Shown here: one piece after another, positions 2,170 to 44,849 of the stretch
Numbering within the stretch: position 1 is the stretch's first letter
How the letters are laid out: the number at the start of each line of letters is the position of its first letter
Origin: Candidatus Magasanikiibacteriota bacterium
Lineage (GTDB): Bacteria > Patescibacteriota > Patescibacteriia > Magasanikbacterales > UBA922
DNA length: 64,000 nucleotides
Assembly (NCBI GenBank): GCA_041665025.1
Contig: JBAYJP010000001.1
Span: 211,996-275,995, forward strand
Direction: 5' to 3'
Made by a program: the position numbers and the translations under genes
Notes under the pieces: generated by a model
The model's database searches: none
What the model was told of the DNA's origin: nothing
Seen by the model: the letters and a program-made list of their open reading frames with translations, nothing else

Positions 2170-3177
2170 TTACAACGTCTGAAGCATAGCCAAAAATGCA
2201 CGACGAGGATCATGTTTACTTGTCACACAATGGTAAATCACGTGTGCGAAAGGCGCGTGCACATGATATTTTCTTACAAGACGCATAAGACAATGAATTG
2301 CGTCTACCCCCTCTACTGTCTGTTTAACCATCTCACGTGCTTTGTCTCCTGTATACCCTTTTCCCAAATATTCTCCAAACGTTCGATTGCGGCTCTCGTG
2401 CGCAAAAGATGTAACAATAAGATCCCCAACCCCGGCAAGTTCGTACGCGGTCCTACGTCTACCACCCATTGCTTGAATAAGATCAGAAATTTCTCTGAGC
2501 GCATAGGTAAGCAACGCCGCTTTGGTATTTAATCCATATTTCATGCCGTCGCACATGCCTGTAGCAATGGTGTATGCATTTTTGAAAGAACCTCCAATTT
2601 CGACACCAATGACATCAGTAGTGGGGACTAGTTTCACATAATTATTTTCCATCGCACTCCTGACTTTATTCATAGCTTTTTTGTTTTTCGAGGCAATATT
2701 CATAGCGGTAAATTGCCTGCGTGCCATTTGGCTTGCGATAACAGGTCCGGAAATAGTCACAACATTTTTACGAAGTTTTGGACGAATATGTTTGCATATA
2801 ATATGAGGCATCAAGCGTAAGCTATGAGGTTCTATTCCCTTTGATACATCAACTATAATTGCATCATGGGCGATACTGCGTGCCGCAAATGAAATCGTAT
2901 GTTCAAGCACACCGCTTGGAATAACCAGAAAAACAATTTCCGAACCCTCAAGCGCTTCAGCAATTTTGAATTTAGGTACAATATTTTTGGGAAGTTTTAT
3001 TCCTTTTAAATATTTTTTGTTTTCATGATACTTTTCAATTTGGCGTAATGGTTCATGATCTCCTTCCCAATTCCAAATCCGAACCTCATAACCATTTTCA
3101 GCCAACACAAACGCAACGGCAGTACCCATGTTGCCGGCACCCAATACGGTAAGAATTTTCTTTTCGTTTTTATCCAT
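2170..3177 (-). CDS. gpsA: NAD(P)H-dependent glycerol-3-phosphate dehydrogenase
   Basis: Rossmann motif LGAGNMGTAVA, plus GPVIASQ and GDLIVT motifs. The ORF-track start at 3231 runs into the inverted repeat; the true start is MDKNEKK at 3177. Confidence 0.9.
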   Translation of the reverse strand: MDKNEKKILTVLGAGNMGTAVAFVLAENGYEVRIWNWEGDHEPLRQIEKYHENKKYLKGIKLPKNIVPKFKIAEALEGSEIVFLVIPSGVLEHTISFAARSIAHDAIIVDVSKGIEPHSLRLMPHIICKHIRPKLRKNVVTISGPVIASQMARRQFTAMNIASKNKKAMNKVRSAMENNYVKLVPTTDVIGVEIGGSFKNAYTIATGMCDGMKYGLNTKAALLTYALREISDLIQAMGGRRRTAYELAGVGDLIVTSFAHESRNRTFGEYLGKGYTGDKAREMVKQTVEGVDAIHCLMRLVRKYHVHAPFAHVIYHCVTSKHDPRRAFLAMLQTL

Positions 3178-3189
3178 ACAAATAATAAT

Positions 3190-3224
3190 CAAGATACAAG
3201 AAACAAATAAATTGCAATAACCAA
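3190..3224. repeat. left arm of 35-bp perfect inverted repeat
   Basis: Verified by base-by-base reverse-complement comparison with 3641-3675. Confidence 0.85.
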
Positions 3225-3227
3225 ACA

Positions 3228-3623
3228 TCAATTATTTCTATCTTTTCCTGATTTCTCTTTTATTTTTTCCTTCTTTTTGATTATTGAAGAAAATATTTTA
3301 TTAAGTTCTATGCTTTCTTGTAGTAAGGGCTGCATTCTGACTTTAAGCTGGGAGTTATTTTCGATAATCAATCTCAACCAATATATAGATTCTTTAGCTT
3401 CTTTTCTTACAATTCTTAATCTGAATAAAAAATCTTTATCTCCAAGACAATCATTGGCTTCTCGATAATTTGCCCCCATAGATGAACTGGAACGGATGAC
3501 TTGATTTGAATAATATAAATTTGTGTCGCTCCTCGGTAGTTGTTTAGTCATATTCAAAGTTCTTTTCGCAAACTCAAAAGTTCTTTCTTCCAAATCAAAT
3601 GTATGCTCTCCGCCTTCATTCAT
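3228..3623 (-). CDS. four-helix-bundle protein of the 23S rRNA intervening-sequence protein family
   Basis: Family pattern FEFAKRTL...LP...Y.L..Q..RS..S...N..EA....KDF...L.IA..E..E..YWL.L is present. Start could be the GTG at 3629 or the ATG at 3623. Confidence 0.75.
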   Translation of the reverse strand: MNEGGEHTFDLEERTFEFAKRTLNMTKQLPRSDTNLYYSNQVIRSSSSMGANYREANDCLGDKDFLFRLRIVRKEAKESIYWLRLIIENNSQLKVRMQPLLQESIELNKIFSSIIKKKEKIKEKSGKDRNN

Positions 3624-3640
3624 AATCACATTGTTGTTTC

Positions 3641-3675
3641 TTGGTTATTGCAATTTATTTGTTTCTTGTATCTTG
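3641..3675. repeat. right arm of 35-bp perfect inverted repeat
   Basis: Reverse complement of 3190-3224. Confidence 0.85.
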
Positions 3676-3686
3676 TTTATTGAAAA

Positions 3687-4499
3687 TTATAAAAATAATA
3701 AAATCAAAACTCCAATAATCACTCTATACACCACAAATGGCAAAAAACTCCACTTCTGTATTATTTTCATCAACCCCCAAATCGCAAGCAAACCACTTAT
3801 TGCCGACGCCACAAATCCTGCAATGAGCATCTCGACACCGACCGCTTCAAAACCGTTTTTTATCATATCAATTAATTGCATACCACCGGCAAGTGTAATA
3901 ATCGGAACACTCATGAGAAATGAAAATTCTGCTGCGCTTTTTTTATCCAATTTTGAAAACAATCCCGCTGTCATAGTAATACCTGACCGACTGGTTCCGG
4001 GAACAAGTGCGACAGCTTGTGCACAACCAATAAACAATGCGGTACGCCAATTTACCTTCTCTAATGATTGTTGATTGTTGATTGTTGTTCGTTGAACACG
4101 ATCTGCAATAAACAAAACAACTCCCCATACAATAAAATTCACTCCAATAATCCACGTCGCACGCAAGTTCTCTTCTATCCAACTGTCAAATAGGATTCCA
4201 ACAATTCCGGCTGGGATTATACTCAAAATAATTAACCAGGCTAATTTTCTATTACTGCTCCCTGTTCCTTGGTCGCTGTTCACCAGTAACACGCTCTTCA
4301 ACATCCCCAACAACTTCTTTCTAAAATACACAACCACTGCAACGAGTGTGCCAAGATGTATAAACGTATCGAACGCAAGTCCCTGATCTGCCCAACCAAA
4401 TAATTTTGGTAAAAAAATAAGATGGCCAGATGATGAGACGGGCAGGAATTCAGTAAGACCTTGAATTATTCCTAAAACAATTGCTTGAAGTATAGACAT
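3687..4499 (-). CDS. uppP: undecaprenyl-diphosphate phosphatase
   Basis: N-terminal MSILQAIVLGIIQGLTEFLPVSSSGHLI is the UppP/BacA signature; multi-TM protein. Confidence 0.9.
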   Translation of the reverse strand: MSILQAIVLGIIQGLTEFLPVSSSGHLIFLPKLFGWADQGLAFDTFIHLGTLVAVVVYFRKKLLGMLKSVLLVNSDQGTGSSNRKLAWLIILSIIPAGIVGILFDSWIEENLRATWIIGVNFIVWGVVLFIADRVQRTTINNQQSLEKVNWRTALFIGCAQAVALVPGTSRSGITMTAGLFSKLDKKSAAEFSFLMSVPIITLAGGMQLIDMIKNGFEAVGVEMLIAGFVASAISGLLAIWGLMKIIQKWSFLPFVVYRVIIGVLILLFL

Positions 4500-4581
4500 G
4501 CAATAAGTATAGCAGAAATATTGACAAAATTCTATAAATATGATATTATTTTGCGAAACTTACGCGCGGAAAGGGGTTGAC

Positions 4582-4812
4582 ATGGAAAAGACCCGCGCCG
4601 AGTTGGAGAGCCTTCTGCCGGAAGATCCGGCAATGGCTCTGCTGGTGCTGGCCGGCCTGATCTTCGCGTTCATGGTCGGCTGGTTGGTATTTCGGCTTCG
4701 CGCTGCGAAGCGTGTGGCCGAGACACTCAACTTCGAGACCGAGCGCCCCGCTCGCATCGCCGCCTTCGAAGAGAAGTCGGCTGAGCAGGATGGGACGCTC
4801 GTCGTCCGCTGA
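4582..4812 (+). CDS. small single-TM hypothetical protein encoded in a high-GC island (about 60% GC, GC3-rich codons)
   Basis: SD GGAAAGGGG followed by ATG. Protein MEKTRAELESLLPEDPAMALLVLAGLIFAFMVGWLVF... Codons are GCC/CTG/GGC/CGC-rich, unlike the host. An antisense ORF (4546..4842, TTG start) is also open, so the coding strand is not certain. Confidence 0.35.
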   Translation: MEKTRAELESLLPEDPAMALLVLAGLIFAFMVGWLVFRLRAAKRVAETLNFETERPARIAAFEEKSAEQDGTLVVR

Positions 4813-4923
4813 GAAAAAGGAGAAGGAAGATGAAACTTCCAAACAGCGGCGGGGTGCGAGTCTACATGCGCCCTAGCCGCTCCCTGCCATGAGATATTGA
4901 AATATCAATGCATCATGATACTA

Positions 4924-27032: not shown

Positions 27033-27201
27033 ATATGCTTAGTGTAGCATAATTGGGTTTAAGAGACAAGAAACAAGATACAAATAAAATCTCAATTTCC
27101 AATTTTCAAAATATTCACAGCCAGCCCTTGACGTCTCTCTCTCTCTTTGCTAGGGTTACATATCGCACTTGTCCTGGTGCGATGGAACAAGGAGACAGAG
27201 G

Positions 27202-27420
27202 ATGAAGCGCGAAGTTTCACCGACGGACTTCACAGCAGTGCTTGAGTACGAACCTCAGGAGGCAGCCGAAGCCGAAGCCGAGGCGGCAATGCTCAAGGCT
27301 GAAGGATGGAGGGTTCTCCTCCGTGAACCGACTGTCGACGGCAAAAGGAGACGCGCGGTGTTGGTCCCGGAGTGCACCGAGCTGACCGCGATCCGGTGGT
27401 TCAAAGAGAACAAGCACTAG
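27202..27420 (+). CDS. hypothetical small protein in high-GC island; an antisense ORF (27217..27447) is equally plausible
   Basis: SD AGGAGACAGAGG then ATG; protein MKREVSPTDFTAVLEYEPQEAAEAEAEAAMLKAEGW... The antisense ORF has SD GGAGGUCG then AUG and begins MWVVVGGEKLVLVLF. Confidence 0.3.
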   Translation: MKREVSPTDFTAVLEYEPQEAAEAEAEAAMLKAEGWRVLLREPTVDGKRRRAVLVPECTELTAIRWFKENKH

Positions 27421-27571
27421 CTTCTCACCGCCTACAACAACCCACATCGACCTCCGCTCTCATCTACCTACCACGACACCCTCAGGGCGTCCTTCCTCCA
27501 GCGCCCGCGCATTGGTTATCTCTGCCTTCCAGCGGACATAGTCAGTGAAAATCGCTGGAGAGGAAAAATAA

Positions 27572-40093: not shown

Positions 40094-40615
40094 TTAAGCT
40101 TTACTTTCTTTAATATTATTTAATACTCCGACCAAGTTTCTCAAATTCCCTGCTAGGACATTAACAAATCCTGAAACAGGTGCATTGATAGACCCGACCA
40201 ATCTTCCAAGCAATTCTTGCTTGGTTGGTACTTTTGAAAGTGATATAACTTCCTGCGCAGCGAGAAATCTGCCTTCAAGTATTCCGCCAAAAAATGTAAC
40301 ACTCTCATGTTTCTTGGCAAAATCTGCCAAGAGTTTTGCTGGAGCTACTTCATCCTCTATACCAAGCACAACCGCCACACCTCCACTAAAGGTTCCTGTG
40401 TCTACATCAAGTTTGAGGTCAGTAAGTATTCTCTGCAAGAGAGTCTTCTTGATTGCTGTGTATGTAATATTTTGGTTACGGCAAATTTTACGAAGTTCTT
40501 CAGAATCTTTTACTTTCAATCCTTGAAAATTTGCAAAAACTGCAGATTTTGATTTCTGTAGTGCAGCAGATAATTGTTCAAGAGATTGTTCTTTTTGTTG
40601 TCGTGTCTTAGCCAT
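40094..40615 (-). CDS. rplJ: 50S ribosomal protein L10
   Basis: 173 aa, placed directly upstream of rplL; typical L10 N-terminus. Confidence 0.95.
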
Positions 40616-40830
40616 ATGCTAAGTTTTCTAAGTTAACTAAGTTGTCTAAGTCTTCTACGTTTAATAGCGCAGTAAAAACTCAAACAAAAAACTGTGGTTG
40701 TTCCACAGACCTTTATGTTATCCTTCGACCTTTTTGGCTGAATTTAGCTAAAGTATGATACTTAGCAAACCTAGTCAAATTAGAATAACCTCGGCAGGTA
40801 ATTAAGTCTTTCGACACCTGCTGTCTATGG
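40616..40830 (-). promoter_or_regulatory. rplJ (L10) leader with internal attenuator hairpin
   Basis: On the minus strand: CUGUGG-AACAA-CCACAG followed by UUUUUU (plus-strand 40683-40708), about 70 nt upstream of the rplJ start. CTAAGTT tandem words lie just before the start. Confidence 0.4.
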
Positions 40831-40881
40831 TAATAAACACAGATTACACTATGGCAAAAATTTTGTCAAGTGTAATCGAGC

Positions 40882-40902
40882 TTGTAGCGCCACGGGGAAT
40901 CG
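40882..40902. repeat. 21-bp direct repeat copy (duplicated 3' end of tRNA-Glu)
   Basis: ttgtagcgccacggggaatcg is identical to 41046-41066. Confidence 0.8.
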
Positions 40903-41019
40903 GCTTCATCTCTCACTCGCTTCCGCTCGTTCGGGCTAGCCACCGCCTCGCGGTCGCGCCTTACAGCAAAATCGGCGCGACTCGCTCCGGCGTTCGATTC
41001 CCTCGGTCTGCTCAAAAAT

Positions 41020-41045
41020 AAAATCCCCCATTTAGGGGAATTTTA
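41020..41045 (-). terminator. intrinsic terminator immediately downstream of tRNA-Glu
   Basis: aaaatccccc-attta-ggggaatttt flanked by T-runs. Nearly the same sequence as the terminator at 54421-54448. Confidence 0.5.
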
Positions 41046-41066
41046 TTTTGTAGCGCCACGGGGAAT
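41046..41066. repeat. 21-bp direct repeat copy (within the 3' end of tRNA-Glu)
   Basis: Identical to 40882-40902. Confidence 0.8.
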
Positions 41067-41120
41067 CGAACCCCGATTCTCAGGATGAAAACCTGATGTC
41101 CTAACCATTAGACGATGGCG
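41049..41120 (-). tRNA. tRNA-Glu (anticodon UUC)
   Basis: Cloverleaf GGCGCCA-UC-GUCU-AAUGGUUA-GGAC-A-UCAGG-UUUUCAU-CCUGA-GAAU-CGGGG-UUCGAUU-CCCCG-UGGCGCU-A. Confidence 0.9.
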
Positions 41121-41270
41121 CCATGTAGAGGAATGTGCCAAAGTATACACTACTTTTTAGCAAGTCGTCAAGAGACAAAAACCATTATTCAATTAACAAC
41201 ACACAGGGATTGTGCTATAGTGATTACGTAAGAACTCACACATAAGCCTTAACTACTCTAACTAGACTAT

Positions 41271-44436: not shown

Positions 44437-44555
44437 ACAAAAAACCGCTTTTCAGCAGTTCTTTGAAAAAATAGTATGTCCATGGTAAAACTTTATATAT
44501 TGTATAATATACAAAGTTCTCGCCATGGACACCTCCTTGCCAAGCGAGAAAAAGA

Positions 44556-44849
44556 TCAGCGTGCGCTAAAAGAGATCTTTTCGCGTGGGATCCTCTTGCC
44601 CCAAGCCCGGGCACACTCCCGCTCGTGTCTCTCCACACAACCGATCTTGATCAGGTAGGCCAGCACAGAATAGACGTTGCTGTGCCGCACCCTCCAGGTC
44701 GTATCCTCAACGATCCTTACGGCACTCCACTGCTTACCCGGCGTCCCGCTGAGAAGTCTGAAGACCTCATCGCGTGCCGGACGCACAATGAGGTCATAGT
44801 GGAGAAAGACACCAACCAAAACACCGCCGACTATGACCAAAAGCCACAT
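44556..44849 (-). CDS. hypothetical small protein (N-terminal TM helix) in high-GC island, antisense insertion inside the nad operon
   Basis: SD GGAGGT 7 nt upstream of the ATG; MWLLVIVGGVLVGVFL...; GC3-rich codons. Followed by a 60-bp hairpin tgtccatgg...ccatggaca at 44478-44537. Confidence 0.35.
   Translation of the reverse strand: MWLLVIVGGVLVGVFLHYDLIVRPARDEVFRLLSGTPGKQWSAVRIVEDTTWRVRHSNVYSVLAYLIKIGCVERHERECARAWGKRIPREKISFSAR

Follow-up and report, generated by a model that had tools for sequence, protein, structure and literature searches.

The window that we analysed is a 64-kb stretch of DNA (64,000 nucleotides) from a genome placed in Candidatus Magasanikbacteria by its L10 protein. 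On its minus strand, which corrects the original prediction, a promoter-like sequence precedes an intact tRNA-Glu(UUC) gene, and the gene is followed by an insert, the promoter and leader of a ribosomal protein transcript and rplJ (Table 1). The consensus scanner misses the rplJ promoter and AT-rich terminators, and both were therefore read by eye.

Table 1 Features of the tRNA-Glu locus, in positions of the window and in the order of the minus strand.
Feature	Position	Strand	Basis or remark
Promoter-like TTGACG-18-TATACT, tRNA-Glu	41171..41142	-	consensus scan
Intact tRNA-Glu, anticodon UUC	41050..41122	-	ARAGORN; Rfam tRNA model, 65.3 bits
Proximal repeat copy: tRNA-Glu 3' end (positions 56-73 + CAA)	41048..41068	-	
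A-rich/hairpin/T-rich module just past the tRNA	41014..41047	.	stem 41024-41039; terminator scan
B' arm GAGCAGACC-GAGGGAAUCGAAC, diverged inverted copy of the tRNA 3' end	40992..41013	-	read directly
GC-rich core	40920..40991	-	folds
Family motif CGAGUGAGA	40911..40919	-	directly before the tRNA-derived tail in other copies
Extra 8 nt GAUGAAGC between motif and tail	40903..40910	-	alignments; only in the window copy
Distal repeat copy ("tail"): tRNA positions 56-73 + CAA	40882..40902	-	
Native flank: 12 nt GCTCGATTACAC, then the rplJ promoter	40841..40881	-	read by eye
rplJ promoter: TTGACA, 17-nt spacer, TAATCT	40869..40864; 40846..40841	-	by eye
Ribosomal protein L10 leader, context outside the element	40676..40848	-	Rfam RF00557, 62.6 bits (gathering 44)
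rplJ, downstream of the L10 leader	40615..40094	-	

The sequence TTGTAGCGCCACGGGGAATCG occurs exactly twice in the 64-kb window as a 21-nt perfect direct repeat, once at the tRNA gene's 3' end and once at the far side of the insert. No further copy with up to three mismatches was found in the window, and 100 shuffles returned none, which confirms the predicted 21-bp perfect repeat of the tRNA-Glu 3' end. The repeat had been described as the last 21 nt of the tRNA; it does cover the 3' end, but consists of 18 tRNA nucleotides (positions 56-73) and three trailer bases, CAA. The copies lie 166 bp apart from start to start, and not 164 bp as first given, with 145 bp in between. The intervening DNA is GC-rich and contains a terminator, as had been proposed: the 111-nt core (40903-41013) has 65% GC in a genome of 39% GC, and a terminator-like hairpin stands at 41024-41039. 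The sole ORF of the insert (40827-41021, plus strand) starts upstream of the repeat. The repeat region is identical in two independent assemblies, the ENA contig and the Logan assembly of run SRR6484324, so the window element is no assembly artefact.

We compared the locus with related genomes. In three relatives with the same gene order (L002, L010 and L026), the rplJ promoter TTGACA comes within ~10-25 nt after tRNA-Glu. The window has ~166 bp of extra DNA after tRNA-Glu, and its native flank, AAGCTCGATTACAC-TTGACA, comes after the distal repeat copy; this TTGACA aligns with the one directly after tRNA-Glu in L002 and L026. Because the same-order relatives pass straight from tRNA-Glu to the rplJ promoter, we read the 166 bp as an insertion, and the empty sites bear out the claim that the DNA enclosed by the repeats was inserted at a tRNA gene's 3' end. 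A further empty site appears in the comparison of L002 with L003, which has the element and whose nearest sampled relative is L002 (81% L10 identity). The relatives used for the empty sites are all distant, with L10 identities of 65-81%. Among relatives, the element is present at only 3 of 27 tRNA-Glu loci, and the carriers are scattered on the L10 tree. No strain-level difference in presence or absence was seen: for the window genome no relative comes closer than 72% L10 identity, and the two other assemblies of it are identical.

Some small features adjoin the native flank. In the window, the -35 hexamer of the promoter behind the tail lies in a hairpin loop, GATTACACT...AGTGTAATC (40855-40881), and the same holds for the promoter behind the tail of L003 (3160-3200), which reads AAGCTT-GACA-AAGCTT. 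Four tandem 9-nt units (CTAAGTTNN) stand between the L10 leader and the rplJ start codon (40619-40663), with similar units in relatives.

The insert at tRNA-Glu belongs, as a divergent copy, to a family of miniature structured elements that is absent from Rfam and from the literature that we searched, where we found no precedent for such an element. A covariance model, R1, run over ~700 kb of related DNA, retrieves 13 elements in 12 contigs at 45-127 bits, the next best score being 17 bits. The elements stand 35-70 nt behind tRNA genes in genomes of the candidate phyla radiation (Patescibacteria) and fall into one size class of 165-210 bp, measured from the tRNA end to the tail. The tRNA genes ahead of them are those for Glu (UUC), Glu (CUC), Gly (UCC), Ser (UGA) and Ala (CGC). 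The copies behind tRNA-Gly(UCC) and tRNA-Glu(CUC) came from a metagenome pattern scan, and those behind tRNA-Ser(UGA) and tRNA-Ala(CGC) are two loci reached by a protein database search with spurious ORFs that run across the element; a six-frame chimeric query of the protein database gave no new loci. Recognition of the internal segment as a known structured RNA had been named as an outcome that would refute the original prediction. Rfam 15, searched with an E-value threshold, yields no family match for the window region or for six further copies (L081, L082, L084, L085 and two in L089), the best overlapping hits being RAGATH-25, ylbH and Clostridiales-2 at 18-28 bits against thresholds of 49-59.

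Read on the tRNA strand, the element begins with an A-rich/hairpin/T-rich module, followed by a diverged inverted repeat of the tRNA 3' end with the arm B' (usually GGGGAAUCGAAC) as its inner part, the hairpin hp2, the linker UGAGGAAAG, the hairpin hp1, the linker RAGAG, a C-GAA-G mini hairpin (hp0), the motif CGAGUGAGA and the tail. Its three hairpins are joined by the purine-rich linkers GGGAAAGG, UGAGGAAAG and RAGAG. The sequence GGAAUCGAAC of the B' arm is near-invariant, being exact in 11 of the 13 copies and replaced by GGAAGCGAAC in L005 and GAGAUUCGAAC in L105. The motif CGAGUGAGA is exact in 12 of the 13, with L105 differing; the second copy in L089 reads CGACGUGAGA. This layout is common to L003, L005 and L017, each of which carries the element behind its own tRNA-Glu with a tail that matches the acceptor sequence of its own genome.

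Both ends of the element are related to tRNA. The tail directly repeats the final 18-24 nt of a tRNA, and in 12 of the 13 copies this is the 3' end of the neighbouring tRNA. It spans tRNA positions 53-76 with the changes U55G and C56A, and its identity is perfect from position 57 or 59 to position 76. Across the core from the tail, B' GGGGAAUCGAAC complements tRNA positions 53-64. In L105 the T-arm version found in both arms is that of tRNA-Ser, and this switch to the Ser type indicates that the arms follow the neighbouring tRNA. The core itself is near-identical across the Gly-, Glu-, Ser- and Ala-linked copies. Neither the inverted T-arm copy nor the conserved structure of the core figured in the original prediction.

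Tails end in CCA in 9 of 15 cases, whereas CCA is encoded by only 3 of 11 neighbouring tRNA genes and by 4 of the 27 tRNA-Glu genes that lack an element; in L003, L005, L089 and L105 the tail has CCA where the gene has none. Another 5 of the 15 tails read CAA or CAC, including the tail in the window (CAA). A copy in a contig of 62% GC (L082, 860-996) has a tail, UUCCCCCCCAGCUCCACCA, that resembles tmRNA or tRNA-Ala; its neighbour is tRNA-Gly(GCC), which its B' arm fits.

The window copy is the most divergent member of the family. It spans the full length of model R1 and scores 44.7 bits (E = 4e-10), the weakest of the 13. Its module resembles a terminator in either direction and makes up the middle of an imperfect palindrome of 41 nt, whose halves are the tRNA 3' end and the inverted copy of that end (inverted repeat I1, 40988-41028 and 41035-41075); the A-rich/hairpin/T-rich layout is also present in L003, L005 and L017, with different stems. 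The inner part of the window B' arm, GGGAAUCGAAC, is the complement of T-loop/T-stem positions 53-63 and is predicted by folding to pair with the distal repeat copy, forming a helix that we call P1. In the folds of its core, one long hairpin (~40944-40991) replaces the family hairpin hp2, hp1 is degenerate (GCCCGAACGAGC), and hp0 is a GC-GGAA-GC mini hairpin.

Throughout the family, B' pairs with the start of the tail, so that P1, which has a fixed tandem G.A, closes the fold. In the R1 alignment, 20 of the 34 pairs are changed on both sides, compared with 13.5 +/- 2 in shuffles, none of which reaches this value in 500 trials; the counts were taken from an alignment fitted to the model, which favours them. 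Two-sided changes affect 7 of 7 pairs of hp2 and 8 of 10 of hp1, and controls with slid partners fall far lower. RNAalifold independently recovers P1, hp2 and hp1, with 14 of 21 pairs compensated.

Such covarying hairpins are what would be expected of a structured non-coding RNA that serves the host or has been domesticated by it, derived from the tRNA 3' trailer and made by read-through and then processing. To this reading we assign a minority share of the probability. In one version, held with similar reserve, the 3' end of the RNA would mimic the acceptor 3' strand of the neighbour with its NCCA, as a decoy or substrate for an enzyme acting on tRNA 3' ends; in another, for which our confidence is no greater, B' would switch between the T-arm of the tRNA and the element's own tail. 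Several clues favour the tRNA strand as the RNA: its loops are of GNRA type (GGGA, GCAA, GUGA and GGAA), the C-GAA-G mini hairpins and the tandem G.A of P1 lie on it, and the internal hairpins hold 24 G-U cells versus 8 A.C cells. A hairpin with a U-run, read by eye, follows the tail in most loci. The frequency of CCA-ended tails, though most neighbouring genes lack CCA, and the position of the L081 element inside a tRNA gene cluster are also in keeping with an RNA. The outer part of P1 speaks against it, with 12 A.C cells on the same strand, and the strand clues are mixed. The gap from the tRNA terminator to the element is too short for a promoter, and tRNA and element are set apart by a terminator-like hairpin. 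An acceptor-like outer stem formed from the outer arms is not conserved among the copies, the element is missing from most relatives with the same tRNA, and a role as RNA alone would leave its status as an insertion, as well as the array in L089 described below, unexplained.

Islands in tRNA genes classically leave inserted DNA flanked by a direct repeat of the tRNA 3' end. Since such a repeat flanks the insert, the element might be the leftover of a normal-sized prophage or island with an integrase, internally deleted to ~145 bp between attL and attR, and GC-rich foreign-looking DNA does adjoin the element in L003 and L005. We consider this very unlikely. The 13 copies lie in different genomes and behind different tRNAs and still have one size class and a conserved fold, a common form at which independent deletions would not arrive. 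The ORFs scanned beside other copies and the 30 window ORFs contain no integrase fragment, and blastn searches of phage and plasmid collections gave no match to the core; three patterns run on viral contigs returned nothing, or false matches from neighbouring tRNA genes or coding DNA. Nor does the idea of a decayed or excised scar hold, as the layout and the covarying fold are found again in 12 further copies, behind tRNA genes of five kinds. Fragments of tRNA genes are common beside tRNA genes, and this frequency is what a local partial duplication of the tRNA (a pseudogene fragment) has in its favour. We give next to no credence to such a fragment, or to a chance repeat, with neither an element nor a function: chance is excluded by the shuffles, and the DNA between the copies does not come from tRNA, save for the inverted arm, and is conserved with covariation across distant genomes.

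The neighbourhood of the copies was inspected for an enzyme. Beside the copies examined (ORFs in L083, L087, L089 and L005) there is no integrase, other recombinase or reverse transcriptase, and none of the 30 mid-sized ORFs of the window yielded a reverse transcriptase or a recombinase domain; the neighbours are TsaD, TsaE, prephenate dehydratase, SpoIIM and similar genes. With no integrase beside these copies or among these ORFs, the claim of an integrase-mediated event stands unproven, and the suggestion of a very small integrative element comes close to our own conclusion. Directly upstream of the tRNA-Ser of the L105 element lies an 83-aa ORF with a GIY-YIG nuclease domain (1113-1364), which the other examined copies do not have.

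The 64-kb window has one element, and L089 has two, both at the same tRNA locus. In L005, a run of 100 N (3226-3326) stands between two apparent tandem copies, the second of which may be a scaffolding artefact. The locus in L089 is an array at tRNA-Gly(UCC) (4760-3280, minus strand) with two elements, small ORFs and a second type of cassette. After the tRNA gene come an element, an ORF of 92 aa and the other type of cassette end, made of a 37-nt repeat and CCCGCTCA, and then a 73-aa Cys-rich ORF, the same 37-nt repeat and the second element. The second cassette end, TGAAAATAAGTTATAACTTCCTGTATTAT with CCCGCTC(C)A, is present twice, and five copies of the tRNA-Gly acceptor end bound the small cassettes; the scanned ORFs that flank the array include no integrase. 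Foreign-looking DNA also follows the element elsewhere. In L003 (~3160-3760) it is GC-rich and has a promoter and a membrane-like ORF of ~100 aa, absent in L002, and in L005 (1440-3080) 1.6 kb of 55-68% GC comes directly after the element, with two ORFs that have no Pfam match.

In several respects the element behaves like the prophages and islands of tRNA genes. It is inserted at the 3' part of the tRNA, its direct repeat runs from the T-loop beyond the 3' end, an intact tRNA gene remains, and the former flank comes after the distal copy. Tyrosine integrases reportedly use sublocations in tRNA genes at the T-loop or the acceptor end. Unlike these prophages and islands, the element measures 165-210 bp instead of kilobases and contains no integrase or other gene, the small ORFs of L003 and L089 standing outside it. 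It also differs from the islands in its covarying hairpin core, its inverted T-arm copy and the presence of the same core behind five tRNA species. The further resemblances, to miniature non-autonomous elements, folded single-strand sites, trailer sRNAs and primer binding sites, serve only as leads, each breaking down at one or more defining features. With CIMEs, MITEs and REPINs the element shares its small size, the lack of an enzyme gene of its own, inverted arms that pair and, presumably, movement with help; neither an autonomous partner nor a partner recombinase was found for it. Unlike MITEs and REPINs, it has arms that copy the target tRNA (Glu/Gly versus Ser type) in place of fixed terminal inverted repeats, and it duplicates 18-24 nt of a specific tRNA sequence in place of a fixed short target site. 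The many dispersed copies per genome of MITEs and REPINs were not seen in the sampled DNA.

Folded single-stranded recombination sites offer a further parallel. As in attC and the attP(+) hairpin of CTX, inverted target-like arms ~80-95 nt apart pair into a stem with fixed mismatches (here the tandem G.A and one bulged base), and structure is conserved more than sequence. The small cassettes of L089, bounded by the same short site, likewise recall the cassette arrays of integrons, and C-GAA-G mini hairpins are very stable in DNA. The target differs from that of attC and CTX attP in being the end of a tRNA gene and not attI or dif, and a single-stranded stage is hypothetical. No IntI integrase with attI turned up among the tested window ORFs or the scanned ORFs around the L089 array, nor was a Xer system identified. 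The element does not show the R''-L''...L'-R' box layout of attC, with GTTRRRY at the 3' end; GUGAGAU and AUCGAAC, which we take to resemble the R' and R'' consensus of attC, are sited at the inner and not the outer end of the stem.

Among RNAs, the trailer sRNAs of tRNA (3'ETS-leuZ of E. coli) resemble the element in lying 3' of a tRNA on the same strand, and differ in that a terminator-like hairpin stands between tRNA and element here. As in tmRNA, YrlA/Y RNA and the tRNA-like 3' ends of viruses, the 3' end of the element equals the acceptor 3' strand of a tRNA, often with CCA; unlike those RNAs, it forms no full acceptor or T-arm mimic and has no match to the tRNA or tmRNA models of Rfam. 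Several specific candidates were rejected. ARAGORN finds no standard or two-piece tmRNA, and the tmRNA_permuted model gives 12.8 bits against a threshold of 47. CUGAGGA resembles the CUGANGA of the hammerhead, but the helices misfit and the ribozyme models of Rfam are silent. GAGGAAAGU is similar to CR-I of RNase P, with no P4 partner and in an element far too small. A split, permuted or intron-bearing tRNA was dismissed because the upstream tRNA is complete and has its own terminator, and an acceptor-stem mimic by the outer arms because these are not conserved.

The first 18 nt of the opposite strand exactly complement the last 18 nt of the tRNA, with CCA in 9 of 15 tails, as a retroviral or LTR primer binding site does. 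A retroelement or SINE-like sequence, whose tRNA-end copy resembles a primer binding site or is a reverse-transcribed mature tRNA and which spreads by an RNA intermediate, would account for the perfect identity block of 18 nt (positions 59-76) in many copies, and for the CCA that the tails of L003, L005, L089 and L105 have and their genes do not. Snap-back or template switching could in such a case yield the inverted and the direct arm. We regard this origin as improbable. The similarity to tRNA runs past position 58 and reaches position 53 with U55G and C56A, so the 18-nt limit is not sharp and a strict reading as a primer binding site is weakened. No reverse transcriptase lies near the copies examined, the element has neither LTR nor coding capacity, no poly-A or other mark of a retroelement was found, and the 5 of 15 tails with CAA or CAC do not fit.

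We favour a miniature, non-autonomous element that inserts at tRNA 3' ends and is mobile with outside help, an explanation that in our judgement has about an even chance of being right. The element would enter by recombination within the 18-21 nt that it has in common with the tRNA 3' end, which would leave the tRNA whole and move its former 3' end to the far side, and another part of the genome would provide the recombining enzyme. What the machinery recognises may be the conserved fold, either as RNA or as folded single-stranded DNA that mimics the double-stranded end of a tRNA gene. A circular form of the window element would join core, tail, CAAAATAAAA terminator and B'. Mobility itself, the enzyme and the active form, RNA or DNA, are inferred.

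Some observations count against mobility. No free or circular form was seen, and the cases with more than one copy are a single locus (L089) or a possible artefact (L005). A functional RNA would account at least as well for the conserved fold and for the GNRA-like loops and G-U pairs of the tRNA strand. A simple crossover also leaves unexplained the inverted arm that follows the target tRNA, the tail of L082 and the excess of CCA at the tails. The element might represent a new class of mobile or semi-mobile structured nucleic acid, a gene-less fold of ~120-160 nt that acquires direct and inverted copies of the 3' end of its target tRNA, a proposal that we put forward tentatively and think somewhat doubtful. 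Such acquisition of arms would perhaps imply, with no more assurance, a route of insertion undescribed for bacteria, either through a folded single-strand site or by copying of a CCA-ended tRNA. In a related reading, the element may be a new non-coding RNA that displays a tRNA 3' end.

If the elements move, they would be the smallest tRNA-targeting insertions known, and arms that both track the target tRNA would indicate an undescribed route of copying or recombination. The loci of L089 and L003 suggest that tRNA 3' ends in the reduced genomes of the candidate phyla radiation gather cassettes that have no integrase. If the elements are RNAs, they would form a new class of structured RNA that presents a tRNA 3' end, often with CCA, and might matter for the processing of tRNAs or for conflicts aimed at their ends. 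In either case, model R1 helps to annotate GC-rich "orphan" segments and partial tRNA copies behind tRNA genes.

Other short segments of high GC content occur in the sampled DNA. The window has three further GC-rich islands (4549-4895, 27184-27566 and 44521-44831) with 63-67% GC in the genome of 39% GC; each overlaps an ORF of 83-97 aa and none adjoins a tRNA. The ORF at 44556-44849 (minus strand), which belongs to one of these islands, has no Pfam match. Small GC-rich hairpins, GTCCGCC-AGCN-GGCGGAC and one other, occur in L105 (~830-860), L106 (~200-225) and L087 (7600-7640), with varying placement. In L105 and L087 they lie inside the tRNA-derived tail and resemble a further layer of tiny insertions.
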